A DNA stretch of 64,000 bases from NCBI GenBank assembly GCA_003971905.1, contig RSEE01000049.1:186001-250000 (forward strand). Direction: 5' to 3'. Positions 3,988-43,443 of this stretch are shown in pieces; position 1 is the first letter of the stretch, and each line of letters starts with the position of its first letter. The notes beneath the pieces are model-generated. The model saw nothing but the letters and a program-made list of their open reading frames with translations, was not told where the DNA came from and made no database searches. The position numbers and the translations under genes were made by a program. The stretch is from Moniliella sp. 'wahieum' (taxonomy: Eukaryota).

Positions 3988-4466
3988 GCTGGCCCGTCAG
4001 CCGGCACATCTGAATCAGTCCTGCTTCCCTGCGTGGCAAGTCTTACACCCACCCTTCTCTTCGTCTGTGTCTACCTCACTTAAGCCCAAGTCGCCTGCGT
4101 TTCCGATGAACTGCCTGATCGCACGTTCGGTTCGCTCGGCTGTGCGGCTGCCCTCCCCTTGCACCGCTACTCTCGAAAGCTAAGCCGATCAAACTTCCCC
4201 TGTCCTAGTCGCTCTCCCCAACCCTCTTCCCAGTTTATATCCATGGACTGCACCTCCTCCCGACTGTGCTGCGTATAGCCTGCCTCGGCCACTTCATACT
4301 AGCTGCGAAGTACAAGGGCACGAGTTTGGGGTCATAGCGGCTACACCAAGGTGGCGTTGCTCCCAAAGTTCAACCTCCTCCCGAAGGCTGAGACGATTCT
4401 TCTCACGTACATCATGAGTGCACCCCCCTGGATGCGTTTCCATACAGCAATATAGGTCACTGCGCC

Positions 4467-5258
4467 TGTTACGGGCTGAGTTGGATCTGGGAGGATCTGA
4501 TACAAGCTAAGGCCCCCTACTCTGCACATACTCAGTAGAGTGCGCTCCGAAGCCCAACCAAGTGTGATGATGGTTGGTTAAATGAGGTATGGTGGCCCGA
4601 TGGGCCATGCATCAGTCCGCGCGGCATTAGTCGGTTGGCCTAAACTGAAGCCACCAAATTTCCAGTCACTTTGCGACGGCTGTCGCCCCGTCACGACTTA
4701 CTTCATCCTTCTCCGTTGCACCTGCGACAACCAATCCATCTTTGACAGGCCTTCCTTTCTATACACCTCTATCGTGTCCGTTTTCCCTTTTGATTTAGCC
4801 TGTACCCCTGTTGATGGGGATCCTTTCTCCGCTTTCCATTCTTATCCCTTCCGGGCCGCCTTTCCTGTCCTCCAGCTTTCCATCCGCCCAGTCGCGCGAG
4901 CCTCATTTCAGCCGCATCGATTCCCCGTACCAGCTTATTGCGTGGGTTCCTTCCAACCACGTCGACAGCCGCCCCTGTTCAGCCTCAGCTCCGGTAGTGT
5001 TTGTCCTCCACTGCCTCCACCCGTCCCTAAACCTCGAAAGCTTCAGACACGTTACTACAGCCCACTCCGATGCATACGCAGCCTTGCAACACGTACAGTA
5101 GTCTCAGCTTCACTTCCAAAGGCCTTGCCTCGTCCCTAGCTCTGTTTGGATCCACCAACTATAGCCCAAGCCCGAAACTACCGTGTGTCGTCCTTTTGTT
5201 CCCTAAGGGATTGTACTCCACAACCCTGGGAGCCCCCTGGCGGGGCTCGCCCGTGACA
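4467..5258. mobile_element. Solo LTR, copy A (Ty3/Gypsy-like termini)
   Basis: Begins TGTTACGGGC and ends GCCCGTGACA (imperfect terminal inverted repeat). Flanked by exact 5-bp TSD GCGCC (4462-4466 / 5259-5263). Homologous to 37989-38811. Confidence 0.9.
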
Positions 5259-8200
5259 GCGCCCCTGCTCGCGCCGGTGATGGTCCAAAGTAGTGGCTCC
5301 AAGGGCATTCGTTGACAAGAGACAATTCCGAGTCAGGATACTTCATCATGTTAGGTTTGATATATGATAAGATGCTACTAGGCTGGGACGCGGTAGCTTG
5401 CCTCAGTGTACCTTACTGCGCTTGCCCCACGCAAGTTATCTGCGTTGCGTGGCCAGCACGTAACACTCGACCATGGAGCCGCACCGCACCGCATCGCGTC
5501 AGGTCATGATAGTCCCCCCATCCCAGACGACCAGGGCGACAGGGCAACACTTACAGCTCCTCAGGCTATAATGCTATAGGGCACTGCAACCATGCAGATG
5601 TATACTGTCCTCGCTTCCGAGCTGGGGCAGGCAATATCAACGTACACGAGGGAGACATGGCCCAACGTGGTATCATTGCATCATATCCGGCATATGAAAC
5701 GCGCCAAGACGTGTCAGGGCAAATACTTGGGAGGGAAATCCTATCCTATTGGTTGGTGCGTCATCCTGAAGTCTCCATCTGAGGTCCTGAAGTATGAGAA
5801 GCTTTGACAAGGTCCGACGGGGAGGCGCTTGAAGCTTGACAGCACTCGATGCGGCGCTATTTAATAGATAGACGACTATCTATGCCGTTCGCGTTTTATA
5901 GGGCAGAGTGCGCTGCTCATCGAGTTCATCAACTTCTTCCTCCTTCCCGTCCGAAAACCATTGATCGATCGTCGTTACTCAATGGTACTCATTCATCAAA
6001 CATGCAAAATGGTAACCTGTGAATGTCATGGGCGCATCCTGGACGGGAGCCCGAATCACAGTGTTGTAGGGGCTTTCCCATGGAGGACGACGGACCACTC
6101 TCACCGTGGCTCCATCCTGAATATACCCCTGGCAGATGCGAACTGAGCTAGAGACGAGGCCAGGCCGCTCAATGTTGTATGGGCCAGCTCTTCACGTGGA
6201 AAAAAGGTCGTTGTGTATGCGCCGGAACGACTGAGGAAGACTAACGAGCCTGCAGTCTGTTTCGTCCTACGGATTGGACGGAACGGTGACGCAGGCAACG
6301 ACACTCAGAAGGGTATGAAAATCCCGTCTTCCATCGGAACAGCTCAGCCATCGAGCCATCGTGTATAATTGCCACGAGGTCCGTATAAGGAGGAGACTGG
6401 ATACTGGGGGTCGACGGCAATATAGATGTCCGCGGTTACATGATACTGGAAGACCCATCAGAGGTGATGATCGCTGGAGGCTGGTCAGTATTATAGGACC
6501 GCTGGTAAACTAGGAGAAGCGCGGGCCTCACAACATGTGGGAGATGCTGTGTTGGGTTAATTATGCATTTATGCTCCATTTAGATGCTCCAGAGTACTTG
6601 TAGGGGTTTGTTCGATGTTCAGACAAAAGACAGCTCAGTCTTGACGTAGACCAACCTAGGCAAGGGAGACAAGGGGATGCATGAGCTTGGCCGGGCTCGA
6701 CCGCCGCGCGCCGTCGCCTCGTGACACCATCAGGCGCGCGCTTCCTCACAAGACGTGTCCTCATGCCTAAGGAATCGATGGCCTCTCCCCTGCCTGCGGC
6801 ATGGACGTTAGGGCATGTGCTCGCCACTCTGCACTCCTCTCCCTTAATAGCTTGATCGATTATCCATCGTCGCGAAAGCCGTCGCTTGATGTGCTCCTCT
6901 TTCCAACCTCAACTCGGTGCTCGGCACACATCTCCTCCATTGGGGAGTTGGACAACATGCCACAGCGAGATCCATTCTGAATCCCTCACACCTCCTTCCT
7001 TCCATCGGTCGTCGGGATGCGAGTCAAGGCTCTTATCCTTTGCCGTTCCACTTTCTTTCGGTCATTGGCGGTACGAGTCCACTCTCCTTGTGAAGCTAAC
7101 ACAATAAGTGTGGGTTGTACGGGCTCAGTTGTACTCAGTTTTGTTGTACTCAGTTTCGCCCGTAACGCGAAACCATAAAAGCAGAAACCTTCTTTGCCCC
7201 CCCCCTTTCCCATCAACAGAATTCGGTATAGTACTTTGTCTAATTAGTATCTACACTTCGCGCGCGGCTCTTGGTGGTCTTCCTTCGGCCTTGCTTCGGC
7301 CCCCTTCGGTGCTGTCCTCGCCACCCAATGCCTAATGGTCAGATCTCAGAGCGACAGCGACGGGGCTCCATTATACATCGTGACTAATATAATGACTATA
7401 GTGACTGCTTCGCAGTATGGATATATACGAGGTGGGGGTGGGGTGAGATCTGAGACCGCCACTAGTCACTTGTATTTTAGTCCTTTCTCAATAGTACAGA
7501 AACAGGACGCACTCGCGCATGCGAGATCCGGAACGTGGGACGCTTGGCCGATGTCACAGACACTTGAGAGCGTGGCGAGCGCGGAAGCGTGGGCGGCATA
7601 GACATCTGCGCATGCTACTCGGTGTTCTCATCATCCAATCGGTCATTAGTTCCACCAGGGGGAAAGGCCTGGTGTCGGGCTGGGGAGGTCAGTGCCATAT
7701 GCACTATGCACAAGTACTCCGTGCTCGCTACCACACTTTCTCGACATGATGCACATGATGTCGAAGATGTTGATATGCCCTGATGGCCAAAAGAATGCAG
7801 GTTTTACCCTCTACAGCAGGATCTCCAGTGCGAAGCTCCTGCGTGGCTTTTGTCGTGGTCGCTCTTTTTCGGACGCGCCTACTACGACGGCTATGCTTTG
7901 GTTAGTAGCCTGGTCCACGCTTGTCACATGCTTCAAGCTTCATGCCGTGATGATAGTCACAAAAGTAGGCGTACATATCGGAGCCAACCAGAGCAGACTC
8001 CTTGGCCCTGATGCTATAGCCCCCATAGTTCAGAGGCTCGGCGATCGGCCCTCAATATTTAATCCTCGATACCGGTGGCCCAGTGGCTCAGCAGCGTAAC
8101 AAACGCTAAACGGGAGTGCTAGGATCGGGTGATAGGAAACTGGGGTTACCTTGGACAGGCTAGGATCCAAGATCTGGGATTTGGGATCTGAGTCCTGGGA

Positions 8201-8785: not shown

Positions 8786-10068
8786 TTACGCCCACGCACT
8801 CTTGTCCCCGGGCGTGTCGGGGAGCTCAAACGCAAAAAACTTGGGTTCCGCATCATGGCTCGCGCTGGACAGACGCATGTCGACAGGGGCAGTGCTCATG
8901 TCAGGCCAGAAGGGAGCCGAGCTGACGGTTGCGGCGCGGGAGCGGCCGGCCAGGCTGTCAAACAGCGCATAGGTGCTAGGTGCGTTCTCGCTTTCTGGGG
9001 GGGGCGGAGAAAAAGTTGGTCGAGGAAGGAATACTGGAGGAGTACTCGGTAGGGTGGGATGCGCTCCATTCCGTCCCAGAGAGAGAAGAAGGTCCAGGGG
9101 CAGTGTTAGGGGCGAGTCGAGCGTATAGGCCTTGTACGCTCCCGTAAGCATAGTGGGCGAAGCAGCATCCGCGTTGCCTGGTCGGCTCTGGTCCCTCCGT
9201 CTACGCTGACAGCCCGTTTGACCGCCAGGTGACGGCTCATCGCATCTTTGCGGGAAAACTGCTTGCTGCAGGTGGGGCAAGAGTAAGGCTTGTTGGCCAT
9301 GTGGATGCGTGCATGCCGCCTCAAATCGTGGTTGCGTGCAAAAGCTGCACCGCACTGCGTGCACCCATAGTTCTTGGGCAACGACACTTTGCTCCGTTCT
9401 TTGCCTGATGCCTTTTGCCTGCTTTGGCAGGCGCAGGCAAAGAGGACGATTCGGCTGGTGCACTGGCCACGTTCTCTGCGGGCGACGCCAGCGCTAGTGC
9501 CGATGGCCAAGGCGCATCCGTCTGGGCTCCAGCTGGCCTCGTTCACGGCCCAGCTGGAATGGTCGACGAACGGTCGGGCACTCGACTCTGCCAAATGACT
9601 GTTATCCCACGACCCGGGCTGCTGGGGCGGGGAGAGCAACGGTCCAGAGGCCGTTGATGCGGCAGGGGAGGACAGTGGCGAGGGAAATGAGGGCGGCGGA
9701 CCAGAGGCCAGGACAGAGGGCAACTGTGCCTTCTGGGACAGAGGCAAGGACGTAGGCCACACACTGCCAGAGGAGACAACTGGAGCAGGAGGGCATGGCA
9801 TGGTGACGGTGGGCAAGTCAACAGGCGCGTGAGAGAAGGTCCCTGCCGGCTCAAAGTTGGAGGTCAACAGGGCGGAGAAGGGGCCGGGAGAAGTGAAAGT
9901 GTCGGCCAGAACCACGGGGGCGGTGCTAGGATCTGGGAGCGCAGCGGGGTCCAGTGCGGGCGCGAACGATTCGAAAGACGTGGGGGCCTGCATGTCGAAT
10001 TGGTCCCGCAACCAGGGCGCGGATGGGAGAAAGGAGTAGGAGCTAACGGGCATGTTGAGCGTCGCCAT
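8786..10068 (-). CDS. C2H2 zinc-finger transcription factor (two fingers; C-terminus uncertain, stop at 9106 or, via frameshift, 8786)
   Basis: YGCTQCGAAFARNHDLRRHARIH-MANKPY-SCPTCSKQFSRKDAMSRH tandem C2H2 fingers, after a Pro/Ser-rich N-terminal region. Confidence 0.85.
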
Positions 10069-11329
10069 GGCGAGTGGTGGTAATAGAGGAAATGTTTGGG
10101 GGGGGGGAGAGGGGGAGGAACTTTAAGGCAGGCCGAGACGCAAAGCCGGTCTGCTACAGGCGGCAGATAAAAGAAAGGTCAGAGCAGGTTCCTTTTGATA
10201 CGTATACCAAGTAGGGTGACTTTCGAACACCAGGCCGGCCCGCATGGAGACAAGGCAGGGGGCGAGAGACAGAAAGTGCGACGATACCGAGGAGATTAGG
10301 CTCGGCAGGTCACTCAGGGGTGTGTCAACTGGTCGATTGTACTCACGGGGTCCAGGAGGCGGCTGGGCGAGGGCAGGAATGGAAGTGTGCCCGACACAGA
10401 GGGAGGAGTGGTGGGCGGAGAGGCGGAGGGGCGAAAAGAGGCGGGCGACGGGGGCGCGGCGGGCTTTATGAGAGTGAAGGAAGGAGACGTGGGTCTGCGG
10501 CAGGGAGGCTGCGCGGGTGGAAAAGGGCAGGGAGGGGCACACGAACACGGGCAATGCAAAGCAGACCAACAACGCAACACAGGCGCTGGGCCTGCAGCGC
10601 GCCAGAGCAGACAGCGGCCTTGTGCTGGCCAGACAGGCCCGCGCACTGGGGGGGAAGTGCTACTGACTAGCGACTGACTAGCGACTGGCTAGCGACTGAC
10701 CAGCGACTAGGGTCCATGCACCATGATCGAACGAGTGAGACGGATGGCGCATGCGGAGAAAGAGCCGACGGCAGGATCTGAGATCGGAGATGTGAGATAG
10801 CTCGATAGTCCATCGTCGATAGCATCGATGGAGTCTGGTCAGGAGGTGGGCCGCAGGACGGGGGGCAGTGCTCGCCTGTGCTGGCCCCTGCTGGGCGCTG
10901 GCCTCCTTTCGAAGCGTTTGCCTTCGGGCGCAGGCTGAGCGCTGGCTCATGCATGATGCGCTGATTCATCATGCATTTCCCTTCGGATCCCCCAGGCCGA
11001 AGGAGAAATGACTGTTGTGACATGGCAGGGAGCAGTGAAAACGGGCACCTGCAGGCTATCGTCTCTCGTTCACGGAACGTACGGCTTCAGGAGATCGGGG
11101 CCCAGATCTCAGATGCCCGATCGATCAGACAACGGGGCCAGTGAATGCGGGAACTATGTATGTCTGTCCCCAGAAGCACTCCACCTCCAGGCCCAGCCCA
11201 AACCGAATGCAGTCAAATTTCAAATCGAGTCGGAGGGACGTTGGGTGCACAGCCAGCGTGGGAGGGGTGGGGCCGCAGAGCAGCCGGAGGCAGAACAGAG
11301 AAGGGCCGCGACTGCCGACAGGAGCAACA

Positions 11330-14300
11330 CAGCCATCGATCATCGATCAGCGCTGAGGCTCAGCAAAGCAGGGCGAGGCGGAGCCAGGCCCCGATCATCG
11401 ATCCATGTCACACGCACATTCATACGGACACGTCCAGCGCTGCGCTGCTGTTGCTCAACGCCCGAGCAGCACTCAGCACGACTTGGCGTCGCGCGTCACG
11501 CAACCGCCAGTCATTTCGTCACTAGCCCTAGTCATGCATGTCATGAGCTGACTGTGAAACTTGCATCACATGCATCACAACGCCACTTCGTCAGCGCGTC
11601 ACCGGTCACCGGTCAGAGCGTCACACGCCGCCGCGCCAGCATCCAATGCCCGCGTCGGCAGCGCACCAAAAGCATCCTGGTATACATACAGGTTGCGGGG
11701 CCCTCTTGCCACAACAGGCCCCACGCTCTTTCTTGGTCATGGTCTTGCCACTACGTAGTGGTACAGATATGTTGCAGACTGCGCCGATTGCTTCAAACGG
11801 ACGGCAGCTGGCACCCGAGACGATCGTAAGCTGATCGGTGAATGGTGAAAAGTGGTTGGTGGCCGCTGGTTCAAGGTGGCCTAGTTTGGCCTGCGCTTAC
11901 AGACTCAAGAGCTCCTTCCGCACCCGCAGTGCACCGGCCCCCTACAGCACTGCCCCCGATCAGTCACCTAGTCACCACCGGTCTCCGGCCACAGGCCACG
12001 CGTCACCCGTCACGCCCAGCGCCGGGGGGGAATGGGCGCAGTGTCACCGGGTCGTTGACCACAGGGGCTAGGGAGTACTGGGTGGTGAGATTGAGAGTAT
12101 GGAGTACTCGTCTGAGTACTCGTCTGAGTACTCTAACCCTCAGCCTGAGAAGCCTGGCTGCTCTGTCGCTCAGATTTCGATCGCTTAGCCTCAGCCGGCG
12201 AAATTACCGGACACCGCGTTGAATGTACGTTGAACGTTGAACGTTGAACATTGAACTCAACGTTTTCCCTGTGGTAGACCAAATACTCAGGCCCAGGGGC
12301 CTCCTCAGGGCGTCAGGATCGGCACTCCTTTAAAACCGAGAAACGAGGGCAATAAGTACTAAGTGGATATTGGATCTTGAAGAGTGTCTTTTGAGATCTG
12401 ATATATCTGGTTACCGGTTACCGCTTACCGGCCTTACCGGTTACCGGCTAGGCCTGAGTTAGGCCTTAGGAGTGCTGTACCAGCAGACCTCAGTTCGTCG
12501 CGGGGTCACCGGTCACCGGTCAGACCTCGGGTATCTGGCTGGACAGGTGGGTGTGGCTAGGCGCTAAAAACGCCAACGAAGCTGGAATCGGTCATGCGCA
12601 GATCGCTTTGCGAGGTGTACTGAGTGTACTGACTAGCTGAGTCTGAGTTCTGCTTAGGCGCTCAGCGCTCAGGCGCTCAGGCGCTCAGGTCTCAGGTCTC
12701 AGGCTTGGCAATCAAAAAAGACTCGCTCGTGGCGGGCTCCGTGTTCGGCCCTGTTCGGCCTCACTGGCTCAGTAGCCACTAACGCACTCACTAATCGATC
12801 ATCTCGATCATCCAAAGATGGGTGACATGTGACATGTGACATGGTGCGGATTCAGAATTCAGATATTCAGACCTCAGGCCTCAGGCCTCATGATATTCAG
12901 ACCGAGGCCCGAGGCCAGCAACATGATACATGAAGCATGATGCGTGACGCGTGACGCGTGACGTTGATCATGGTGCCACCATGTCACCACGTCACCGACT
13001 ATCGATCTAGTCACTAATACTCACTATGTATTCACTCGCCACTCGATCAATAGTGGATCATCGATCATCATGCATGCATCAATATATATCAATCCCGGTC
13101 CCAGTCCAGGATCATCGATCATCGATCACTAGTCACTTCGACAATCGATCACTGGATCATCGATCATTAGTCATGCGCCACGCGTCACGAAGTCACGCTC
13201 AGAAACCTCGAATCATTAATCATTCACCTCCATGTGCATCATGCATGAGTGCCTCAGCATCAATTGATTAGTCGCTTCGCCGTACGGTACTACCAGTGTA
13301 CTACTGCCTGTACTGCCCAGGTGCTGGCGAGCAAATTGCTCCACCGGGTTTAGGTGGTCGGGCGGTCGGGCCTGGTTTGGTCCGCAAAAAGACCGATGTC
13401 GATGACGACAAGGTGGTTGGTCGCGGGGCGGGCGAGCGCAGCTAGCGCGCTACCCCCTAACTTGTGCCGGTGATCGACGGTGTCGCGTGACGCGTTGCCG
13501 GTTTACTGGGGTATGTGACACGTGCCATACAACAAACCTAATGCTATCATGCCCATTCGTCACATGTCACATGTCACAGTAGGCCACAGTCGATCTCCCC
13601 TAGCGGCTAAAAGATCTAATGTATGATGCATGATTTGCATGATTGAGGCTCTTCAAAAGCTTCAAGCTTGAAGCTGCAAGCTTCAAGCTTCCAGCTTCTT
13701 TAGGCCTCAGGCGCAGGAATAGTGCGACGTTGTACCACTTGTGTACCAGCCATGGCGACGGCCCTCTCGGGAATAGGGAAAATCGCAATAAAACCATCGA
13801 TTTATCGATTACCGATTCTTATCGATTACCAGTTACCGGTTACCGGTTACCGGCTTACCTAGTTACCCAGTTACCGGTTATCGATTACCGAGGACTGGTT
13901 TCCGGTTACCGGCAAGGCCTTAGGCATTACGCGCTACGCGTTACACGTTACGCGCCTTCAAGCTTAAGGCCTATGGACCACGGCCAAATAATGGATCGAT
14001 TACGCATTACCACGTTACCCATTCTGCATTTTGCCCCTCCACATCGAGACATTTCTCCTGCGTTGCCTTTCTGGACGCTCGATGGTCGATGGTCCATAGT
14101 CTTGGCCCCGCCCAGCTGGGTACGTAGCGCCGATCTGATGAGTGTGAATTCCAATCGCCTTTGCACCGGGGGTACATTCGGAACCGAACATGTCCCAAGG
14201 CAGAAGTGAGTCGCCAGCATTGCGCCGCACTCCTTCACTCCGCCTTATGTGTTAAACTTTCAAGCTTCACGCTTTGAGTCTGTCCCCAAGCCTCGGCCTC

Positions 14301-14530
14301 ACGTGCTGCTGCGGTCCGAGGTCGGTAGAATATGTACTTCAGCTTCAGACTTGGCCCGTTGGAGCGTGGTCGTGCATCGTGGACCAGTTAGAGGGACCGG
14401 CTAGCGTGACGCACTGCATCCCACACTTTCGTTTGTGAGATCTGTGAGAAGTGATTCTCCCGCTGACGGGTGATGCATGATGTCTGAGCATGATCATTTC
14501 GATCATTCATCATCGATCATCGATCATGCT
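11330..14530. repeat. Dense cluster of 7-bp-phased palindromic micro-repeats (A-N4-T-N)n
   Basis: AACGTT-G (12233), ACATGT-G (12825), AGGCCT-C (12876), ACGCGT-G (12947), ATCGAT-C (13114), AAGCTT-C/G (13657) and ACCGGT-T (13835) arrays. Confidence 0.85.
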
Positions 14531-15353
14531 TCATGGGCTCTGAATTTGACATTGGAAAAAGCTGTTGGAAGCTATAGGCCCTAGGGGAAATGCGAGGCTT
14601 CGCCTTCTCTGGGTGGGCACGTTATTATTAAGCGGTACCCAAATTTCCGGCCACATACCCTACTGCAATAGAGGTGCAAAAAGTCTCCGTGCTGCTGCCC
14701 CACGGGCGGGCGTTGCGGCAAGCGCCACACGAGTAAATAGATGAGTGCGCGCGATGTGCTCTAAAATCTAAAAGCGCCAAGTCGTTTCTCCTGTGGCCCT
14801 ATATTATACGCTGAGTAACTGAGTACACCTGTACTGAGTAAAAACCTCTTAACTACTGAGTACTCAACGTTACTGGGTGTACTCTGAACGCCCCGCAAAA
14901 GCGGTTCGCGCAAAAGGGCTATTTGATACAGCCGTTCCCCAAGCCGATGCGCGGAAAATGTGGGCCATGTAGACCAGCACAGGCCAATCATGATGCACAT
15001 GATGCATGGTGCATGATGCATGATGGTTCCACGGATCTAGGCCTACTGCCGGCAATGTCGAGTATATGTGGACGCTGAGGAAAGACTCCTGGACGAGATG
15101 GATGTGGGTGCTAATGAAACGACCCCTATATATATATTGCGAGATCCAATAAACGATGATCGATGAACTCCTTTTGCGCCCTATATACGATCCGCGCGGA
15201 TGCAACGCACACGCATGAAATGCCAAGCAAACCTGTGTAATAAACCACCCTCCTCCACATACCCGGTATCCTAGGTACATAATAGACCGGGACGGAATCC
15301 CATTGGTCCTTTCGTACAGCATTTGTTTAAAATAGCAACTCTCTAACATATAT

Positions 15354-15566
15354 GGATGTCAACCACGTTCATCCGTGTCCACGCGCGCTTCCTAGGGTAC
15401 GGCCCTTAGCGAGAGCCGGAGGGTCTTGATATCCTGGCGATCCCCCTGGTTCCTTGACCTTGGTGGCGCTTCCAAGTAACCCCCGCAAGATGAACGGTTA
15501 GGTTTAGACGTAGCGTTCCCCCTGCCCCAGCCTTAAGCTCTGTCAATGAAATGGACGCAAAGTAGA
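15354..15566 (+). mobile_element. 5'-truncated 3'-end fragment of non-LTR retrotransposon
   Basis: Similar to the reverse complement of about 30948-31165, including the end of the ORF (ACCACGTTCATCCGTGT) and the tail GCAAGATGAACGG...CCTTAAGCTCTGTCAATGA. Confidence 0.75.
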
Positions 15567-18500
15567 ACGCACATGCATATAGTAGGTGTATATATTCGAA
15601 AGGGTATCGTATGTAATGTGGGTAACTATTAGTAGAAACTAGTAACTAGTAACTCTCCACTCTAAGATCTAAGGCTTGAGCGAGCGCTGAGCTCAATCTC
15701 ACTCCGCACTATAGCCTCACTCTCCTGATGATTATTAACGTGGAGGCCTGAGGCCTGATGCACCTAATGGTCCTCATCGAGGGTGTTGATTGACGCAATC
15801 GCACTAGTGGTGCTGGTAATAGTAGGTGGTGGTGGGGGGTCTAAGCCACAGCCATCGAACAACTCCTACAGAGGAATATCAAGCAGCCAGACTCCACCAG
15901 GGGGGGGGGCTACTAGACTGAGGAACAAGGAAAACCGAAACGAGAAAACAACGGAACTCCTGGGTCTGAGGAGGGATCTGTGGAGGGACTGCCAAAAGGG
16001 ACGGTGGCCAAAACACACAGGAGCCATTCGACACCTCTCTCGTCTCCTGTTGACCTGGGTTGTGTCTATTAAGCCAAAAGACCGAGCTGGTTGATCTAAA
16101 TGTTGACCATCGTTACGTTGAACAGTCCATGTATTACATTGCGTTCAAACAGAGCATATGCCAATTCAACCTGCACTACGTGGGTCGAGTCCCTTTTGTA
16201 CGGCTGAGAGATGCTATTCGGTGAGCTGCTCCCCCCTCTGCCTTTATCCTGCTTTTGGGATTATTATTACTTCCACCTTTTGTATGCAAAAAAACGAGCT
16301 CTACTTGACCTTCCTAATCCGTCCGTTTCCTTCCCTCTCGTTCATTGCGATGATTTTTCGTATATTGATGAATTTCTCGTTTTGGGCTGAGAGTGTGTCC
16401 TCCCGGCTCTTTCCGTCCTTAGTCCCTGCAGATTTGCATGGGCCGCCAGCAGCCTACAAGGCAAGAAGAGACTTCTTGAGGTCTAGCACGGAGGCGGCGG
16501 ATCATGTGGCAAAGCTGCCTTCGACAGCGCCTTCGGCAGTATTAGTGACGTGCCTGAAAAGCCATTCGGACTCGGAAAAGGGAGAAGAGGCAACCAGAAG
16601 GACAATCCCCTCAGACTAGGATTGGAGTGGGAGCTGGAGGGACTGAAGCTGGGACTGAAGCTAGGGACTGAGGGCTGCGGGGGCTGGGAGCGAAAAGACT
16701 GGGAACTGTGTGGTTGATAGGCCGTAACTGAGAGACGAAGTTGATAATAGGCGTAAGAGGCGAAGGCGGAGAGAACAGAGGAGTCTATCAAGTGGAAAAG
16801 AATTTGCCTCGCTGTCATAAAAGGCCCATTATTTACGGACTGCCGAGCACGGAGGGTGGCAAAAATCACACAAACCGGGATTACAGGCTATAGGCTGAAA
16901 AAGGAAACCAAACGCAATAGAAGGAGAATTGGGAAAGGTATAAGGGACTGTAGGGTGCAATTGCCACCAGGAAAACAATTCCCTTGGTCCTTGGTTTTAC
17001 TCGCATCGCCCGGCCCTTACAAGAGAGGGTGTGCCATTTTTGTATCAAAACGCCATTTCTTTTCAATTCATCATTGACCTAGGCATTCATTTCTTCTGTA
17101 TAGTCTTTTCCTGCTATATATGCCGCATTTTCCTGTGACCTACAGATGTTCTTTCATCCAGTTTCCCTTCGTTCGGTGGACCCCTATTCCCATCGAAGTC
17201 CAGGACCTCGGGTCCGGCGTACCGATGTCACTGCGATCACATACGGCCGAATTTCAGCCACACTGCTGACCACATAAAGCATGCTCCGGTGCTTCAGGTC
17301 TTGCATAGGCGTCTCGCCCCGTTCCGTTTAGGACGTGTTTAGGTTCGAACAACCGTAGCCTCGTCCATGAAAAAAACTCTGGGCCGATTCCCAGTGCGGA
17401 GTCTGCGCCTAGTGTGTGGCGCATACAGCACTAAATGTCGGGAGGGGGGGGTTCAAATTAATTATTGTTGGAGGAGCGAGATGTCCTCCACACAACATCA
17501 CCGTGTGACTTTTGTCGCTCGAGACTGTAACTTTGATCATGTTCGGATCTTTCTTCAAGCTTCATATATCATGTCTCTCCTCTCCATTCTCCGCATTTCA
17601 GCGCAATGTTACTGATTACTGTACGGCGTGTGCGGCTCTTCATGGTGAAGAGAGGGTCTGTGTGACATACAACAAAAATACACACGGCCTACGTGAATCA
17701 TCCCGAGGCCTGTGGCTCGTATTTGAGGCATTCCGCGAGAGGGAAGCGAGAGACGCCAGTCACATAACATGTAACATGCAGTGCCCTCGAGGACCGAGCA
17801 CCCTCCGCGCGGTCCCCACCATACTGAAGCCAGTCAAGACTTAGCTGCGCTTCTCCAGCTTCGCCCCGCTACTTTCTTAGCGCCTTTTAGTGCCAGTCTT
17901 TGCTTTCGCGCTTCCGAGTTTGTGATGCCAATATACACCCAGCTGTTACCGGCTACCAGTGACCGGAGTGACCTAGTGACCTAGTGACTGGCCTCGGCGT
18001 CGATGCCATCATGGATGTCACACACAGCCGCATGTCACAGATACGTGACCGAGTACTGTGTATTGACGCACTGTGACATGCATGTGACATGTGATGTGGG
18101 ACGAACTAAAGATGCGAGTGTAGTCACAAGTCACTCAGGACTCAGTACTCAGTCTGAGTACTCACTATCACTAGATCCTCGCACTAGATCCTCGATCACT
18201 TCGATCACTAGATCACTATAGCTTCACTACGTCACTACTCACTACTCACTACTCACTACTCACGACTCACTACTCCCTAGCCATGCAGTCCTGTACTTCA
18301 ACTTGAAGCTTCAAGCTTCACAGGCATCGGCACCCAGTACCCAGCACCCACACACCCAACTCCAACTCCGCCGCAGTGACCCTGTGACTATAGTGACTTT
18401 TTGTGTGCCGGCAGTCCCCGTTTCACCACCAGCCGGGTCCTTGACGACCGAGAATCGTCCGGTTGAGCTTGAGAGCTCGAGCTCAGCCGGGCACCGTGAT

Positions 18501-19307
18501 CGATCGTTATGCATTTTATGCACCAACATGCATCACCATATCGGGCACCGGTCAGGCCGGTCATGCTGAATGTGTTGAGTTTTGGACGTTGAGTATCTGA
18601 ACCCCTCTTCGATCCATTCTTTCCCTATTGTGACCATGATGAACCATGCACAGTATAGCAGAACCTATCACAATTCACTCCCTTCTCTGGATCTATACGC
18701 ACACCCCGGTATATGCGTCTGTGGATATCTCTCTTCCTCAGGCCGTAGCTCGATGCTCACACGGCTCACGCCCCACACAACTCCTACCACGTTTCCTACT
18801 TCACCGTCCGGTTCGTTGTCAGAAGTATAGTAGCTAGCCTACCGTAGCTATTACTATACCTGCCAGGACTCTTGGGCCTCGTCGTATGGTTCTGCTTTCC
18901 TACGGACAGGATCGGAAGGGACCACACTGTCTTGCATGCCTGGCAAAAAAACGAGCATCGATACGTGAGTTCACGCTGGATCCCCCAACGGTACGATGGC
19001 AAGTCAATGGATGCGCAACCCCAAGGGGTGGAAAGAAAAGTATACAATTGTTGGTGCGAGCATCGCGGCCCAGAGAAGGGAGAAACAGGGCAAATAACAA
19101 GGCGTCACACAGTACGGGGGGGGGGGGGGGGGGGGACGAAGGTGGAAAGCGGCGTTGATAAGGTAGGGAACTGGGGCCGCTTGGGGTGTGGAGAGCACAT
19201 GCAAGCGGACGGGGACGGGAGTGGGATTCGGACGCTGGGGGTTGCGAATTGGGAGTGGCAGTTGAGTTGGTTGAGAGGTAAGAGTTGAGTGTAGGAGACT
19301 GGCGAGG

Positions 19308-22104
19308 TTAGGATAGACCCATCGGCATCCGGCCCAGACGCGGCGCAAATCCTGGCGGCATCAGGTCCGCCCCTTGTGCCGGCAGGGGAAAGTCTGACCC
19401 GGGCCCGGAACTAGAGGGTGCACCGCGGTACATCATCGCCTGCGCTTGCGCCTGTGCCTGCGCCGGGCTCAAACCTTGCATCCCCACCCGCGATGGGATC
19501 CCCGGCGGAGGTTGCCGTCCCAAGCCGAGCATACCAGGGTCGTAGTACGGCGCTTCGGCGACGTTGCCGCCCCCGTTAAGGCACCTTTTGCTGCTGCGAC
19601 GAGGCGGCAGCCATGATCTGAGCAAGAAGTGGGTTGCTCCCTTGAGCTTGGGCTTGGGCTTGAGCTTGGGCTTGAGCTTGAGCCTGAGCGTGAGCCTGGG
19701 CCTGGGCGTGAGCCTGGGCCTGGGCTTGAGCCTGGGCTTGAGCCTGGGCTTGAGCCTGGGCTTGCGCCTGAGCTTGCGCCTGAGCTTGATCTTGCGCTTG
19801 GGCATGGACCTGCCCCGCTCCCACGGACGGGGACTGACCCAGCATTGCCGCTCTGGCCTGGACTTGCTGAGCTTGCTGCACAGCCTGCGCTTCGGCCCAC
19901 GCCTGTTGTTGAGCGGTGGGCGCGGCAGTGTCGAACCAAGGCGCGTTTTTGGCCGCTTGCTGCTGACTTTGCCAGCGGTAGAGTTGTTGGAGGTACTGAG
20001 CATTGGCGTTGGTCGGTTGCGGTGAGTTGGTCTCGTCCCCTCGCTGGGGATACAGTCCATTCATCACTCGCGACGTGACCGGGTCCAGCGCGAGGCCGGG
20101 TGCGACCCCATCTTCCTTGTTCATCAAGCGGGACCGGCGCTCGGCCTCTTTAGATTCCAGCTTGCCCCAGGCCAGCGACGCGTAGGGGTCAAAGCGGCCA
20201 TGGTAGGTGACATGCGACGAGCCCATCGGGCCACTCTCAACCAACAAACACGACGCGGCGTGGTCCAAGGCAGTGGGGCCCACGTGCAACGTGGCGCTCA
20301 GCGCACCCAACGACCCAAACCCAGTAATCGTACCAACCCCCAACGCTGCTAACCCAATCGCATACCAGGATGAGGAGACTGCAATGTTGGTACGGTCGTC
20401 CTTGGTGGACAGCGTGTCTTGTCTCTGCTGCTCGTCCAGGCAAAAAGTAAAGTCATGGTCATCATACGCAAAGCACGAGGCCAACGCTTCTACCGTCTCG
20501 CCCACATCGACATCCAACGGCAACCGTCCCTTTCGGAGTTCGTCTGGAGTGAGAGGCGTGGCGCGAGTCACATCGGGCCCGACCGCCTGCTCCTCTTGGG
20601 TAGGAGCACTGGGCTCCTTCGAAGGTAAGGCCAGCCCAGGAGACTGAGTTGCTACCACACTCGGCTTGGGCGAGTCGGCTACCTTGACAACCTCGGCTAG
20701 CGACGGTTGGGGCGGGGTGGCAACGACGTCTTCTTTCGCTGGACTGGAGGAGGCCAAGACAGAAGGTTTGTTGGCGGTATCCTTGATAGTCTCCTTCTTG
20801 GCAATCCGTTGCTTCTTGGGCTGCTGTGCTGTTGCTTGCGCCGCTTGAGAGTGGGCCAGGGCCGTTGAAAGAGGCGGAAGCTCTTCCTGTCGCAAGCCGC
20901 CCGGTGTTGTTACACGATTGACCGAAGGGCGAACCGGGAGTCCGCTCCCCGACCCCAAGAAGCCGTCTTGGGTAGGGCTGTCCCACCACTTTCGCTCTCG
21001 TGAAGATGGGTGTGGGCGTGGAGATGCGCAGGTGGATGGGGAGAGTGAGGATGGGCATGGCCATGCGCCTGGTGTGCAGCCTGGAGGATCGCGGCGGGGG
21101 AGGGGGGGGCAGGCAAATGCGCTGGGGGAGCTGGAGGAGGGCGGTCAATGGGCGCACCCCAGGAAGTAAGCAGTTCTTGTTTGGAAGGCGCGACCACAGC
21201 CCGGACCTTGTCAGTGTCCGAAGCAGAAGGACGGAGATGCGCAGGTCCTCCTTGGTAAACGTGTCCATCTCGTCCGCCGGCTCATGGACCAGGGTGCAGT
21301 CCATATTTTGGCACGGCAAAGCACGCAGGTAGTTGGTGCAGTATTGTTTGTCCCGTAGCTTGCATGGATCGTCTTGTCATCCGCACTCTTGGTGCCATCG
21401 ATCGAAACAATTGCCCGTGCTGCATCTTCCTGCCGCTGATACGTCACATAGACACCGATCGACGTGTCCTGCGTACCCATCACGAGCTTGCTCTTCGACT
21501 GACGCCGGCTGATCTCAATGTAGCTGATCCGCCCGTACTGCCCAAAGTAGTCATGCGACTTGAGCGTCGGGATCAGGTCCTCGGTGGCCAACTTGGAGCT
21601 CAAGCCAGTCACGTACACAACGTTGCGCTGCACGATCCGCGAGTTGGCGAGGCGGGTGCGGTTCATTTGCTCCAGCTCCTTCTTCTCTCGCTCGCGTTGC
21701 TTTTTGACCTGACTCAGGTGCTTGATCTCTTCGTTGCTCATCGGGGTGAACTCGACTTGATCCTCACTGTACTTACGCCGGCACGCAGGCAGAGACCATT
21801 GAAGTTCTGCATAATGTTGTGCCAGCAAAAGCGACAAATCTAGCCAGGGCAGGACAGGGGGGTCAGCGGGGGCCGGACACGGCGGCTGGGGGGAGAGGAA
21901 GATACGCACGCGGTAGCCACATGGACAGGGTTTAAAGTTGGAGTCCGTAATGTCAATTTCCTCCAGACAAAGGGGACACTCCATTTCCTCGTCGTCTTCA
22001 TCGGACCAGACAGCGTCCTGCAGACGGATCCGCAGGGCCTGGGACAGGTCAATCTGACGACGGCGGCGGCGGCAGCCCGGTGGGAAGAAATGGGTCGTGG
22101 GCAT
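19308..22104 (-). CDS. NOT4: CCR4-NOT complex E3 ubiquitin ligase Not4/Mot2 (intron 21840-21909; several frameshifts)
   Basis: [32 protein letters not shown], coiled coil, RRM ([13 protein letters not shown]...YFGQYGRI...VYVTY...IHASYGT), remnants of the C3H finger, then low-complexity and QA-rich C-terminus. Confidence 0.92.
19642..19800 (-). repeat. Coding hexanucleotide repeat encoding poly(QA) in NOT4
   Basis: QAQAQ... tract in ORF 19576..20958; visible as (GCTTGG/GCTTGA/GCCTGG)n on the + strand. Confidence 0.9.
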
Positions 22105-22875
22105 GGCTCTGCTCCTTGGCGGCGACGGCAGCGCCACGAGTGGAGGGCAAGGCAGTCGCCCAGCGGTTGACGGCGGGGGGGGTGGCGGTGCGTGTGCGGG
22201 CACGGGCGGGCTCGGAGGAGGCCAGGGCAGCGCTGAGGCCGAGGGGGGGGAAGGGGGAGCCGGTGGTGGGGTTGAGCGCGTGCGGGACGGCGCTGGCGCT
22301 GGCGGGCGAGTCGAGCTCGGGGCGGCCAGCGACGGCGGAGCGCGGCGCGGCATCCTGGTCGGCGCAGCGGGCAGAGGCGGCGGGTGTCGAGAAGCTCTGG
22401 GCGAGAAGGCGGCGGCCGAGACGCGGTGCTGTGATGAGCGCCTTCAAGTTGGAGGGGCGTCCGTCCGCTGCAGCATTCAACATTCAATATTCTCGCCAGC
22501 ACACCGCAACCCGCAATGCCCGGCGCGGGCCAGCAACATTGCAAGGGGGACAACCCTAGCAACCCTACCTCGGTTATGCCAGTTCTGCCGCGTGCACCCT
22601 GGGACACGACTGACGTCCCCTGGCGTCCCCTGGTGTCTCCTGGTGTTTCCTGGCGTCCCACTGGCGCACCCCGGGTATCCACCTCACGTTGAGATTCAAC
22701 ATGGCCCAGTGTCTTTACGGCATGAGGCTCAGTTGCTCAGTGGCCACCCGAAAGCTGCCCTCAACGCCATGATCATCGATCATCGGCCACCGCATGCGAT
22801 TGACGTCCCACGGCGTTGGCGCCACGCGACCCCCCCCCTCTTTTCTTCACCACCCTTGCCTGCCTTCCACCTGCC

Positions 22876-23652
22876 ATGACCACTGCTCCTTACCCCATCG
22901 ACCGCAATACCATTGTGCATGTGTACCGCTCCAGCCGGGTGAGACGCACCAATACCGCAACCTCTACTGCTGAGACAGCCAATTCTCCCTGTGTGGTCTA
23001 CTTTGACCATCCCCCCCAACCTCAACCCCCCCAATCTCCCAACCCTCCCAACCCCCCCCAAGACTGGTACGGAGCTTGCGCGGGTTGCGAGTTCTTCACG
23101 CTTTCTTCACCTTCCGATTTTGTTCCGTCGACATGGGACATGACCTTTTTCAGCCTGCTCGCATGCTGGACATGTTATAAAGTAGTCTTGTTGCTTTGTA
23201 CCCAGAGCCCGACATGGGACAAATCCTGCTTCTGATTCTTAACTGTGCGCGTGGTGTACGAGATTAAGCGGTGGAAGAGGGGAAGAAGTATGCCGCCAGT
23301 GCCGTTGGTGTTCTTGGTTGGATCACCTTGGTGGTTCTCACTGGCATTGAGTCGGTGACCAATTCGCATAAAAATGATGCCGCCGACACCATCTTCTTAT
23401 TGATCGCAGTATCTTCCGAAGCAACAATGTTTTTGTACTTCTTTATTACTTTCGCTCACCATGCGAGTATGGGTGTCATTGATTCCTTTTTCATTCGTCT
23501 GTTGGGCAAAACCCCGCCCTACCAACGCCCAGCACAATCCGCTGCCGGGCTCTGCGGATGACCATGTGCAGGACAAGCCTCGCTCCAGTGAGGAGGAGGA
23601 CAACGACCGCATGTCTGCCAGCATTAAGCCTGTTGAGGGAGGCCTGGTTTGA
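22876..23652 (+). CDS. Orphan multi-pass membrane protein, family copy 2 (frameshifted)
   Basis: MTTAPYPIDRNTIVHVYR...VVYFDHP, PTWD, EGKKYAA...LGWITLVVLTG, KNDAADTIFLLIAVSSEAT, IDSFFIRLLGK, ending ASIKPVEGGLV*. Confidence 0.7.
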
Positions 23653-23962
23653 TTCATTCTTCGATCGGTGTCCTACCTGTTGGCCGTGGTCTTCTTGTCC
23701 CCAGTCAGCGCTCAGCGACCCCCGCTTGCATCCACTTTTGCTTCCCATCCCGTATACCGCTCTCCCACTCTACCCTTCTTCTGCGCCCTAGGCCGACACT
23801 ACGCGTTGTTTGTATATGCTTCTGAAACCTGCTCCCTATGCTTGCCCGAAAGATCTACTTGTGCTCCTACCAAACAAGAGGAATGCCGGACGGGGAGGAT
23901 TGTCGTTACACTACCAACTCGTGTATGAAAGACACGATGAAAGGGGAGGTGGATGGTCGTAG

Positions 23963-24034
23963 GGGCGGATAGCTCAGGGGTAGAGCGCTTGCTTAGCATG
24001 CATGAGGTCCGGGGTTCAATTCCCTGTTCGTCCA
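23963..24034 (+). tRNA. tRNA-Ala(AGC)
   Basis: Cloverleaf GGGCGGA/TTCGTCC with the G3:U70 alanine identity pair, anticodon loop TT-AGC-AT, TTCAATT T-loop, followed by T6 terminator. Confidence 0.95.
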
Positions 24035-30634: not shown

Positions 30635-30947
30635 GGAACAGTGAATGGCTATCCTCCACCATCTCCTGTTTGGGAACCGACTAGATTTTGATTGGCACAG
30701 CTGCACCTGCCGTGCCTTGTATTTTGATAGTCAGGAAGATGAAGCGCTGGGAAATGGATTTTGGAAGAGATTCATTGACGCTGTTGTTGCTGTGTGAGAG
30801 CTGAAGCGCCTTGTTAGTCTTGCGCATGGGTCGTAATTGCACTGACAGATTGTCAAGGCAGTCACGTCTGCGTGTCCATGTGGTCACTATAGACAAGAGT
30901 TTTGAGCACCATCAGTTGGTGTTCCACAGTATTTCGTTCCACGGAAT

Positions 30948-31800
30948 CTCTATACTGCATCCATATCATTGACAGAGCTTAAGGCTGGGACAGGGAAACG
31001 CTACGCCTAAACCGAACCGTTCATCTTGCGTGGCTTACTTAGTAGCCCCACCAATGTTAAGGAACCAGGAGGATCGCCAGGATATCAGGACCCTTTCGTG
31101 CTCGCTATCCGGTCCCTTACCGTAGGTAGCGCGTGTAGACACGGATGAACGTGGTAGACATCCGAGCGAGGAACCATTTCCATTGAGACTCAGTAGCCAA
31201 ATCCTTCCAATGCGCAAATATCTTGCCCGCTGTCTTGGTGCCGTAGTATCCTCGCGTCGTCAAAACCAGGAGAGGAAACGGCTCTTGAGTGCGTCCCTGG
31301 TACTTGGCGTTCTTGTCGCATTCTGTTTGTTCCAGCAGCCGAATCAGCTCCTTCTCCCGGCATTCCAAAGGCGTCGCGGTGCTCTCATGCGCCACTTTCC
31401 GGTACGTACGCGCTGTGCGTCTCCTGCGTTTCCGTGTCGCGCAGCGTGTGGTCCACCTCCATTCCTGATCCTCCGATTGCTCCAGGCCCCATCACGCGGT
31501 AGTCGGTGCGCAGCGCCTTCCACCCACGTCTCGACCCATCCTCTTCCTCCACAGCAGGTTCGTTGCGGACGTGGGTGTCGGGTTCGTTTCTGGGGCTATT
31601 GTAGTCCTGTGGGTAAATAGTATGGGAAGTTTTCCCCTCTGTGTCCATCTGTGATCTTTGCAACAGATTAGATGATGCGAACCTCGCCTCCCTCTCCCTC
31701 GTTTGTTTCGGTTTTATTAGCGTCGTCTCGTATTCTTTTATAGGTCGGGCCTGTATGGCCCTTGAGACATGTTCTTTGTTCCTTGTCGTCGACATTTCAG
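30948..31800 (-). mobile_element. Degenerate, 5'-truncated non-LTR retrotransposon with restriction-like endonuclease (CRE/Cnl1-like)
   Basis: Broken ORFs 31385..31795 (EPAV...LRTDYRVMGPG...MEVDHTL) and 31117..31395 (REKE...KY...FPLLVLTTRG..G...HWK) resemble the C-terminal restriction-like endonuclease of CRE-clade LINEs. The 3' tail is shared with three shorter copies in the window. The 5' boundary is approximate. Confidence 0.7.
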
Positions 31801-32681
31801 TCTCGAGTGTGTCCTCTTCGTCGTATATATACGGATATTCATTTTGACCCTATACTCACGCCCGCTTCACGACATGCCATCCATATTATTGACCTCGTGG
31901 ATAGTGGTATACTGCAGGGAGTTGGGCATTCTCCAATGCCAATCCGACACTACAGAGTCGACTTTTTGTTCCAGTGACTAGTGATAGGACATGACCGAAT
32001 GGCCGACTCTGCCTGCGTCGCGCTTTCCCAGACAATCATTTAGGACCACGGACTACCGCGGGGCGTTTACAGTCGTGCTCGATGCGGCGTTTTGATGCGA
32101 ACCGACGTCTCGATTAAATGGGCCTCACCTTCCCTCTGGCTCCATTGCGATGCCAAGAGTGTTAAACGTTCAGCATGGATCTGCCTTGTATATGGAGTCT
32201 GTTCACCTCCAAAGAAAATCCCCTAAAGTGTATGTGGACCCCCACGACACGCCTCTCAATCCCAAGTCCGTCCATGACAACCGCAGGGTGAAGTCCACAT
32301 GACGATTATATTCTAGCAACAGGCCACAGATTCACGCCAGAGAAGCGCCCGTGAAGAGGCGTCTTACGCTTCTCTTGTCGGTCAAAGAAGAAGCGCCTTG
32401 TTGACCGGGACCATTGACACTCCGCTCTTCGATTATGCAGATTGTGCCAGTTTAGAGAAGAGCAAAAGGCAGTATAAATTCTGACCATTGATGTGGAATT
32501 TTGATGATTGAACGTGGTTCAGGCTGAGCTATCAGGCTGATAGCTGATACATCTGATGTGATCAGATGAGATCTACAGCACACAGTTCATCGATGAACGA
32601 TCATCTCGATCATCGACCTTATATCTACGCCAGAACTGTAAGGTTACAAGATCGACCGGAGCGCTTTTATTATACAAGCAA

Positions 32682-32772
32682 CACACGCCGGATGAACGGG
32701 TCTTCGGTTTAGGCGTAGCGTTTCCTTGTCCCTGCCTTAAAAGCTCTTTGAATGATATGGTTACAGTATAGG
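32682..32772 (+). mobile_element. Short 3'-tail fragment of the same non-LTR element
   Basis: GATGAACGG..CGGTTTAGGCGTAGCGTTTCC..CCTTAA..GCTCT..AATGATATGG matches the shared tail. Confidence 0.7.
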
Positions 32773-43332: not shown

Positions 43333-43443
43333 GGTGGCGCTACCACAGGCAACACACGCAAGATGAACTGTTCTTCGGTTTAGGCGTAGCGTTCCCCTGT
43401 CCCAGCCTTAAGCTCTGTCAATGATATAGATGCAATGTAGAGA
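43333..43443 (+). mobile_element. Short 3'-tail fragment of the same non-LTR element
   Basis: CACGCAAGATGAAC...CGGTTTAGGCGTAGCGTTCCCCTGTCCCAGCCTTAAGCTCTGTCAATGATAT closely matches the reverse complement of 30948-31032. Confidence 0.75.

Follow-up and report, generated by a model that had tools for sequence, protein, structure and literature searches.

Excision footprints are usually studied locus by locus in the laboratory. When a two-fold symmetric enzyme such as a transposase or an integrase makes staggered cuts, a stretch of fixed length with a dyad-symmetric centre is directly duplicated, and one or two inverted-complement bases at a joint mark the opening of a covalently closed hairpin (P nucleotides). 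The duplication measures 5 bp in Transib and 8-11 bp in Mutator-like elements (MULEs), a 3-bp TNA/TWA duplication is the hallmark of PIF/Harbinger and the IS5 group, and RAG, Kat1 and alpha3 are domesticated hairpin-forming transposases. As described in PMC5499845, hAT, Transib, RAG and MULEs form flank hairpins that are opened by host enzymes such as Artemis, and end joining then leaves footprints; the flank hairpin of Muta1 comprises both strands in full (43+43 nt), its duplications are 8-9 bp long and more than 90% of its excisions in yeast are precise. Footprints of Ac/Ds in Candida yeast are reported as short deletions along with inserted P nucleotides that are palindromic (PMC5873905). 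For the Basidiomycota, transposons with 7-bp duplications are reported from Pucciniales (hAT7) and from Laccaria bicolor (Kyakuja), Kyakuja being a KDZ element with CA..TG termini and no inverted repeats (Kojima 2025, PMC12730594). We analysed a 64,000-nt stretch of Moniliella sp. 'wahieum' (assembly GCA_003971905.1, contig RSEE01000049.1, positions 186,001 to 250,000 of the forward strand), referred to as the window, in which non-coding DNA contains numerous short junctions between 7-bp duplications, most densely at positions 11330-14530 (the focal tract). On balance we lean towards the view that a cut-and-paste DNA transposon with the 7-bp target duplication nnTSAnn (S, C or G) left these junctions as excision footprints stacked on one another.

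A preliminary description of the window had proposed that its intergenic DNA follows the rule TNA-[any 4-bp palindrome]-TNA, and all the palindromes cited for it were located in the sequence: AACGTT at 12231 and 12238, ACATGT at 12823 and 12830, AGGCCT at 12874 and 12881, ACGCGT at 12945 and 12952, two copies of ATCGAT followed by ACTAGT at 13112-13126, AAGCTT at 13657-13698 and ACCGGT at 13833 and 13840, with the remaining examples confirmed at 12662, 13213, 2027, 7444, 18142, 39235 and 62044-62058. Comparison with 100 dinucleotide-preserving shuffles of the 64-kb window revealed 117 such 10-mers against 8.63±3.14 expected (maximum 19). Motifs with the same N on both sides made up 93 of them (2.58 in the shuffles), those with complementary N 14 (2.37) and those with other N pairs 10 (3.68). 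Repeated 6-bp palindromes occurred 22 times with the outer bases A..T and a spacer of 1 nt, and each of the 19 remaining pairings of outer bases with a spacer of 0-4 nt gave 0 or 1 case. Among the 64 triplets in the arrangement XYZ-[4-bp palindrome]-XYZ, TCA (43), TGA (33), TTA (13) and TAA (4) were found; the next triplets, ATC (10) and ATG (8), are rotations of the same arrays, and no non-TNA triplet exceeded 10. Filler lengths between identical TNA triplets had a sharp peak at 4 nt, where 93 of 181 pairs were palindromic, with 28-82 pairs for each of the other lengths from 0 to 10 nt. Autocorrelation in the focal tract showed an identity of 0.374 at lag 7 and 0.306 at lag 14, compared with 0.22-0.27 at other lags; outside the focal tract the lag-7 identity was 0.284.

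The enrichment, the dependence on A..T palindromes with a single-base spacer and the 7-bp periodicity asserted in the preliminary description were thereby borne out, and other parts of it have to be modified. All 16 of the possible A-N4-T cores occur, and not 15. The T..A frame holds, but N is not free, being C or G in 133 of the 154 classified junctions. Period 7 is likewise real, yet related junctions exist at periods 6, 8, 9 and 11. The claim that the core varies while the phase is kept, which speaks against a single satellite, agrees with a core switch within one phase and with the mixture of periods 7, 8 and 9 at 12652-12704.

The 10-mer itself is not the elementary object, because 58 of the 61 isolated cases extend beyond it in period 7. 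These isolated 10-mers, without an in-phase neighbour, account for 61 of 93 sites; three show no period-7 extension, 53 extend by at least 2 nt on at least one side, and the commonest state is an extension of exactly 2 nt confined to one side ((0,2) and (2,0), nine cases each). The rule of TNA, any 4-bp palindrome and TNA describes the pattern correctly, but as a by-product of the 7-mer junction anatomy. The minimal product is a 12-mer in which the 5-nt direct repeat TSA-xy surrounds the reverse complement of xy, as in TCACTAGTCACT at 13126.

An unbiased scan for a word followed by an inverted copy of its last j bases and the same word again was enriched whenever word and filler added up to 7 nt (69-94 matches versus 3.3-4.9 in shuffles). 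Two 7-mers separated by one inverted nucleotide gave 24 and 25 matches versus 1.2 and 1.0 in shuffles, and two 7-mers separated by two inverted nucleotides gave 12 and 25 versus 0.2 and 0.2, inverted fillers of 1 nt and 2 nt being 20- to 100-fold enriched. The 165 five-plus-two matches on both strands had T in the first position in 114, S in the second in 117 and A in the third in 113 cases, and positions 4-5 of these words were unconstrained. The mirror product, with its filler taken from the TS end, was found 13 times, of which 11 were self-symmetric. The commonest product, a 5-nt direct repeat plus 2 nt, might be compared with the 5-bp duplication of Transib. A plain 5-bp duplication TSAxy with two P nucleotides was set aside because the 5-mer target would be asymmetric, the mirror product is limited to the 13 cases mentioned and full 7-mers are seen in 41 junctions. 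In maximal runs of exactly 7 nt with inverted-copy filler, which were collected without prior placement of the triplet, TSA occupied positions 3-5 in 6 of 13 period-9 runs and in 3 of 8 period-8 runs, where chance predicts about 1 in 32. The duplicated unit is a 7-mer ab-T-S-A-xy, arranged head to tail and centred on TSA. Between two units there are 0, 1 or 2 nt, in rare cases more, and these repeat the neighbouring end of one copy as its reverse complement.

For classification, all pairs of identical TNA triplets were taken with their flanking dinucleotides, ab preceding and xy following, and compared with 50 shuffles. At period 7, the core copied the downstream dinucleotide (xy and its complement) in 28 junctions (0.12 expected) and the upstream one (the complement of ab and ab) in 31 (0.20 expected); it fitted both flanks in 23 (0.02 expected) and was palindromic without fitting either flank in 11 (2.0 expected). 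In 82 of the 93 palindromic cores, one half repeats the dinucleotide that directly borders the motif, for which chance would give about 12%. Further classes were the plain 7+7 duplication (11 observed, 0.22 expected), period 8 with one complementary base between the 7-mers (14 observed, 0.12 expected), period 9 with two bases between them (16 observed, 0.02 expected), period 11 with 2+2 bases at 18072 (1 observed, 0 expected) and period 6 (19 observed, 1.2 expected). Across the window, period 5 (2 observed, about 2.4 expected) and period 3 (TNATNA; 52 observed, 40±5.7 expected) showed no enrichment over the shuffles. The 154 model-consistent junctions in the window are centred on TCA (71), TGA (62), TTA (14) and TAA (7), and the duplicated target is dyad-symmetric as well as strand-symmetric, as seen from the numbers for TCA and TGA.

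Two repeats differ from these classes. At 12102-12133, a 12-bp unit present in 2.7 copies consists of the 8-bp palindrome GAGTACTC and GTCT; it is TGA-phased, but its 9-nt filler falls outside every simple one-event class. A 9-bp repeat at 2219-2253 (TGCCTGGCC) has an inverted 2-nt junction and is centred on CTG instead of TSA; it may have arisen by chance, or else the target rule may allow exceptions.

The focal tract holds 51 of the 154 junctions, about 16 per kb versus 1.7 per kb elsewhere (103 junctions in the remaining 60.8 kb), and the strictly classifiable ones cover 614 of its 3201 nt. That this tract is non-coding, as had been assumed, is supported by its two long open reading frames (ORFs; 11008-11829 and 13643-14209), which have flat GC1/2/3 values, unlike the verified genes, and no Pfam match. 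None of the 117 10-mers lies within the seven Pfam-supported ORFs. Junctions are missing from the 2-kb bins at 20-22, 24-28, 44-46, 54-56 and 58-62 kb; the bins at 20-22, 24-28, 54-56 and 58-60 kb contain Pfam-verified genes, and the bin at 44-46 kb contains an ORF with a paralogue and without a significant Pfam match. The triplet is locally constant: TCA occurs 19 times and TGA not at all at 13001-13200, and at 13801-14000 TTA occurs 18 times versus 0-2 for each other TNA.

The longest arrays reach 12 units, and all are at most 90 bp long (Table 1). Serial events at one site are directly seen in three heterogeneous arrays, at 12652-12704, 13110-13137 and 17958-17990. The first of these combines period 7 with a GCGC core, period 8 (GCTCAGGCGCTCAGG, a 7-mer, one complementary nucleotide and the 7-mer again) and three plain copies of TCTCAGG. 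In the second, the order is TCGA, TCGA, CTAG and then CT, and the new core copies the CT that follows it, giving the 12-mer at 13126. A separate 19-bp tandem array at 2088-2191 (5.6 copies, 92% matches) has a unit made of two TCA-phased junctions, which suggests a composite footprint that was later amplified as a larger unit.

Table 1. Positions of the focal tract, of individual junctions and arrays and of genes recognised in the window
Position	Strand	Feature	Source
11330-14530		Focal tract: non-coding, dense TSA/TTA-centred 7-bp duplication junctions	
11334-11356		TCA/TCGA units x2, then the 10-bp perfect palindrome TCAGCGCTGA (complementary-N class)	
11562-11579		Period-9 junction: 7-mer CATCACA, 2-nt inverted copy, CATCACA	
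11598-11615		TCA/CCGG period-7 array, 2.6 copies	
12227-12256		TGA/ACGT period-7 array, 4.3 copies	
12409-12448		TTA/CCGG array with spacings of period 7, 8 and 9	
12504-12522		TCA/CCGG period-7 array	
12652-12704		Site GC-TCA-GG, three junction classes in series	
12795-12812		Period-9 junction GATCATCTCGATCATC: 7-mer, inverted copy of its first two bases, 7-mer	
12822-12843		TGA/CATG period-7 array, 3.1 copies	
12850-12890		ATTCAGA plain duplication and period-8 junction, then TCA/GGCC array (3.4 copies)	
12938-12963		TGA/CGCG period-7 array, 3.7 copies	
13110-13167		TCA-phased array, core switch from TCGA to CTAG	
13559-13578		TCA/CATG period-7 array	
13627-13644		Period-9 junction: CATGATT, 2-nt inverted copy, CATGATT	
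13657-13698		AAGCTT + N array, 6 copies, N changing between C and G	
13796-13955		TTA domain; cores CCGG, TCGA, CGCG and one-step variants	
14434-14527		Two period-9 junctions (TGTGAGA, GATCATT) and TCA/TCGA array	
17958-17990		AGTGACC repeated, inverted junctions of 2 nt then 1 nt (outside focal tract)	
18072-18092		Sole period-11 junction: 7-mer, 2 nt from left copy, 2 nt from right copy, 7-mer	
34192-34451		Second cluster: AGCT, GGCC, GTAC and CCGG cores, period-9 junction at 34433	
62044-62067		TGA/TGCA period-7 array, three consecutive 10-mers	
9106-10068	-	C2H2 zinc-finger gene	Pfam scan of ORFs
47017-47541	+	ASF1	Pfam scan of ORFs
54750-56222	-	VAC8-like armadillo protein	Pfam scan of ORFs
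58727-60220	-	Protein with three RRMs	Pfam scan of ORFs

The dyad symmetry of TSA, the fixed length of the duplication and the inverted bases at the joint together form the signature of hairpin-mediated excision. Footprints of this type require two copies of the target duplication side by side, which were found in the plain (11), period-8 (14) and period-9 (16) junctions, and they require P-nucleotide-like joint bases with small deletions, which were found in the 82 flank-copying cores. The preliminary description had considered the scar of a recurrent cut-and-repair process. In the form of hairpin-type excision this is supported by the 7-nt duplication on a dyad-symmetric TSA and the inverted flank copies of 1-2 nt, and its agent is inferred. 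A topoisomerase II break with a 4-bp stagger, also considered there, fits poorly, as it predicts 4-bp direct duplications and not 7-bp ones with flank-templated palindromes.

In the mechanism that we propose, the element would duplicate 7 bp of target centred on T-S-A, and its excision would leave each flank capped by a hairpin. A host nuclease would open the hairpin about 2 nt off the tip, a preference which we take to match the behaviour of Artemis, and would thereby produce an overhang of 4 nt that is complementary to itself (xy y'x' or b'a' ab). In the most frequent outcome, one overhang would be kept and filled and the other clipped together with its two flank bases, resulting in ab-TSA-[4-bp palindrome]-TSA-xy with a spacing of 7. 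If both copies stayed whole, one extra nucleotide would give period 8, two would give period 9 and 2+2 would give period 11, and a hairpin opened at its tip would give the plain 7-bp duplication. Every footprint would double its TSA target without changing the middle base, and a later visit to either copy would add a unit with a core derived from the dinucleotide beside the site used. Phase and middle base would be kept while the core changes because TSA is doubled and the core is rewritten from the local flank, and the local constancy of the triplet at 13001-13200 and 13801-14000 would follow from the retention of the middle base in the TSA copies. In long uniform arrays of at least three identical units, slippage has probably added further copies.

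Compared with the Ac/Ds footprints of hAT elements, the junctions share the retention of both copies of the target duplication; they differ in its length, which is 7 bp instead of 8, in palindromes that are centred between bases and not on the complement of the element-adjacent base, and in being stacked in arrays with one dominant product (4-bp palindrome, period 7). The classical hAT footprint was rejected for this locus since its palindromes are not enriched and the observed ones are even-centred, although the length of 7 bp fits that of hAT7. With V(D)J coding joints and RAG-Transib the junctions have in common an even-centred flank hairpin and P nucleotides of typically 1-2 nt; in contrast, no recombination signal sequences were seen here and the target is nnTSAnn. 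Muta1 also has the even-centred flank hairpin (43+43 nt) that the anatomy requires, but its duplications of 8-9 bp differ from the 7 bp found here (PMC5499845). A Mutator-like duplication length is not seen in the window, where the repeats of period-8 and period-9 junctions are 7-mers with inverted filler and not 8- or 9-mers. The 7-bp target duplications of hAT7 and Kyakuja and their occurrence in the same phylum are the closest likeness in length, and the 7 bp found here fit Kyakuja; the reports of these elements concern Pucciniales and Laccaria rather than Ustilaginomycotina (PMC12730594), and no copy is present in the window. Candidate elements are hAT7, Kyakuja or a MULE/Transib-like element. 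Cleavage of the RAG/Transib or Muta1 type suits the even-centred geometry better than classical hAT does; the junctions are therefore classed as hairpin-type excision footprints, with the superfamily left open.

Several observations weigh against a transposon as the source of the junctions. With 154 in 64 kb, the junctions are very dense for excision events that became fixed, and some of them must stem from the amplification of arrays; their number is therefore not that of independent events. The "1-nt replacement" class expected under fully symmetric processing was represented by a single case (0.04 expected) and is called absent. The segments 4450-5450 and 37970-38980, which are paralogous, were aligned in order to tell ancestral from derived states and proved uninformative. 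Footprints of the classical hAT geometry were not enriched in the window (1 versus 0.2 at period 7, 5 versus 1.2 at period 6). Pfam detected no transposase domain in 194 ORF submissions from the window, which comprised overlapping sets of 12, 52 and 130 ORFs out of 344 stop-to-stop ORFs of at least 80 aa, the set of 130 being drawn from 0-19, 31-46 and 60-64 kb; neither a hAT transposase domain (dimerisation domain, DDE) nor a KDZ domain was found in the scanned ORFs. A search for intact elements with 12-nt inverted termini (at least 10 matches) flanked by 5-10-bp duplications revealed no terminal-inverted-repeat element with a TSA-centred 7-bp duplication in the window. Finally, the supplement of PMC12730594 provides consensus sequences and no target sites for hAT7 and Kyakuja, and a central TNA is not given there.

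The output of the element search was at chance level or array-internal. All 11 matches with a duplication length of 7 were either array-internal or without central TSA, and a 1152-bp candidate at 13504-14665 was rejected on account of its 5-bp repeat without TSA. The ORF at 44335-45684, which has no significant Pfam match and a paralogue at 35041-35787, was dismissed as a transposase, its look-alikes in the Atlas being DUF6534 membrane proteins of Basidiomycota (score 0.94).

The same junction anatomy would arise if a host-encoded site-specific nuclease, for example a domesticated transposase of the RAG, Kat1 or alpha3 type, repeatedly broke TSA sites in open chromatin with a stagger of 7 nt and hairpin-capped ends that were then sealed by end joining, with no mobile element involved. 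Such an enzyme would account for the absence of an element from the window and for the local density of 51 junctions in 3.2 kb; however, a plain staggered break yields a 7-bp duplication only if both overhangs are filled, whereas the duplication is natural for insertion followed by excision, and no candidate gene for the nuclease was seen in the window. We regard this explanation as unlikely. Its self-propagating form, in which a hairpin-forming nuclease retained by the host breaks TSA in certain intergenic tracts without any wandering transposon and each repair doubles the target, so that the tracts grow by themselves, appears quite unlikely. An origin in replication is doubtful to a similar extent. 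Here, template switching or snap-back synthesis would seed short inverted and direct copies, and hairpin-prone 7-mers (a palindrome plus 1 nt) would expand by slippage in the manner of a minisatellite. Arrays of up to 12 units agree with this, as do units that are self-complementary except for N and could stabilise slipped intermediates, and slippage probably contributes to the arrays of at least three identical units. But inverted copying of more than 2 nt, and with it any long form of the template switching named in the preliminary description, predicts complementary N, which is the minority (14 versus 93 with the same N). Copying of exactly 1-2 nt from the opposite strand followed by a backward jump of exactly 5-7 nt would be needed, and the specificity for T-S-A (TCA/TGA 76, TTA/TAA 17, other triplets at most 10 each), the coincidence of run boundaries with TSA and the isolated single events at 61 of 93 sites would stay unexplained. 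Heptamer micro- and minisatellites resemble the arrays in being short, head-to-tail and non-coding, with copy numbers that slippage can alter; they differ in that slippage produces no in-phase core change, no flank-templated palindromes, no TSA specificity and no isolated junctions. A slippage microsatellite, with whole-unit variation of one motif, was accordingly discarded in view of the in-phase core change, the mixed periods at 12652-12704 and the 61 single junctions among 93 sites.

Footprints of PIF/Harbinger would consist of a 3-bp TNA duplication around two bases from each inverted terminal repeat, and the palindromic core of TNA-[4-bp palindrome]-TNA looks exactly as such a footprint would. 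The core copies the local flank dinucleotide in 82 of 93 cases, however, as an element terminus would not. All 16 cores are present, only 3 of the 61 isolated sites lack an extension past the 10-mer, and the direct repeats are 5-7 nt long instead of 3 nt, with 7-nt repeats in the period-8 and period-9 junctions. The flank-copy rule, the range of cores and the 7-nt repeats contradict this origin, which we consider highly improbable. A selected cis-regulatory or structural code, with arrays of palindromic hexamers serving as sites for dimeric factors or as cruciform-forming promoter DNA, is very unlikely as the cause of the pattern. In its favour, arrays occur in non-coding DNA only, the C2H2 zinc-finger gene on the minus strand has the focal tract upstream of it, and many of the cores are known factor half-site palindromes; a code of this kind, which the preliminary description had named as an alternative, nevertheless predicts neither the 16 cores nor the flank-copy rule, the variants of period 8, 9 and 11 or the fixed 1-nt C/G spacer. 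Secondary co-option of the arrays after their creation is possible. An artefact of assembly or sequencing is scarcely credible, with 154 short heterogeneous junctions at many loci, coding sequence spared and arrays of at most 90 bp that lie well inside read length.

The chemistry of hairpins and footprints is classical, whereas a 7-bp nnTSAnn target, the dominance of one product and stacking over kilobases are not known to have been described. A literature search that omitted most subscription journals found no description of a 7-bp-phased palindrome grammar or of stacked footprints at genome scale. In the focal tract, footprints appear dense enough to form a recognisable sequence grammar that occupies at least about a fifth of the 3.2 kb. 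If the transposon reading is correct, the genome records the target preference of the element (nnTSAnn, 7 bp), the manner in which hairpins are opened in the host fungus (for the most part at 2 nt from the tip) and the resolution of incompatible overhangs by end joining; transposon traffic alone could then create new non-coding DNA in which palindromic hexamers, potential sites for dimeric factors, abound. The signature to be sought in other genomes is a 7-mer, 0-2 inverted bases and the same 7-mer, centred on TSA. Were a domesticated nuclease responsible instead, it would constitute a built-in generator of palindrome-rich regulatory DNA, by which kilobases such as 11330-14530 would have been written de novo from few seed sites.

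The window has a G+C content of about 0.55 and is eukaryotic, with intron-containing tRNA genes and long ORFs for ordinary nuclear proteins. In addition to the genes in Table 1, Pfam identified CIA30, G-patch and RING/RRM proteins among its ORF products. The VAC8 ORF matched named proteins from Pseudozyma, Ustilago, Exobasidium and Violaceomyces at 83% identity, and its identity to unnamed records was 92%, which places the host among the basidiomycetes, within Ustilaginomycotina or close to it. Two intron-containing tRNA genes at 238-336 and 2608-2706 are 95% identical and 2370 bp apart; each scored 49.3 bits with Rfam, and both were missed by ARAGORN. A tRNA-Ala(AGC) is located at 23963-24034.

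Paralogous segments with 71-88% identity are scattered over the window (4530-5240 and 38050-38790; 35235-35780 and 45004-45546), and a further set comprises 1626-1786, 61771-61928 and, in inverted orientation, 22848-23709. The window thus resembles a region that is specific to its lineage and rich in duplications, and conserved genes are few at 0-19 kb and 31-46 kb. A tandem repeat at 19641-19800 with a 12-bp (also 18-bp) unit in 13 copies lies within long overlapping ORFs (19308-20958) and is probably a coding low-complexity repeat, and a poly-G run of 20 nt is found at 19116-19135. A dispersed repeat is present in four copies, at 15354-15566 (+), 30947-31163 (-), 43345-43443 (+) and 32674-32740 (+), which are about 100-215 bp long and share a strongly conserved core of about 90 bp. 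A search of 15300-15650 gave no Rfam match at E≤1, and the repeat was rejected as an element end as the alignment of 15354-15566 with its relatives showed no evident TSA-centred duplication or obvious terminal repeats. Possible identities of the repeat are the remnant of an element, a promoter module and a gene for a small RNA.

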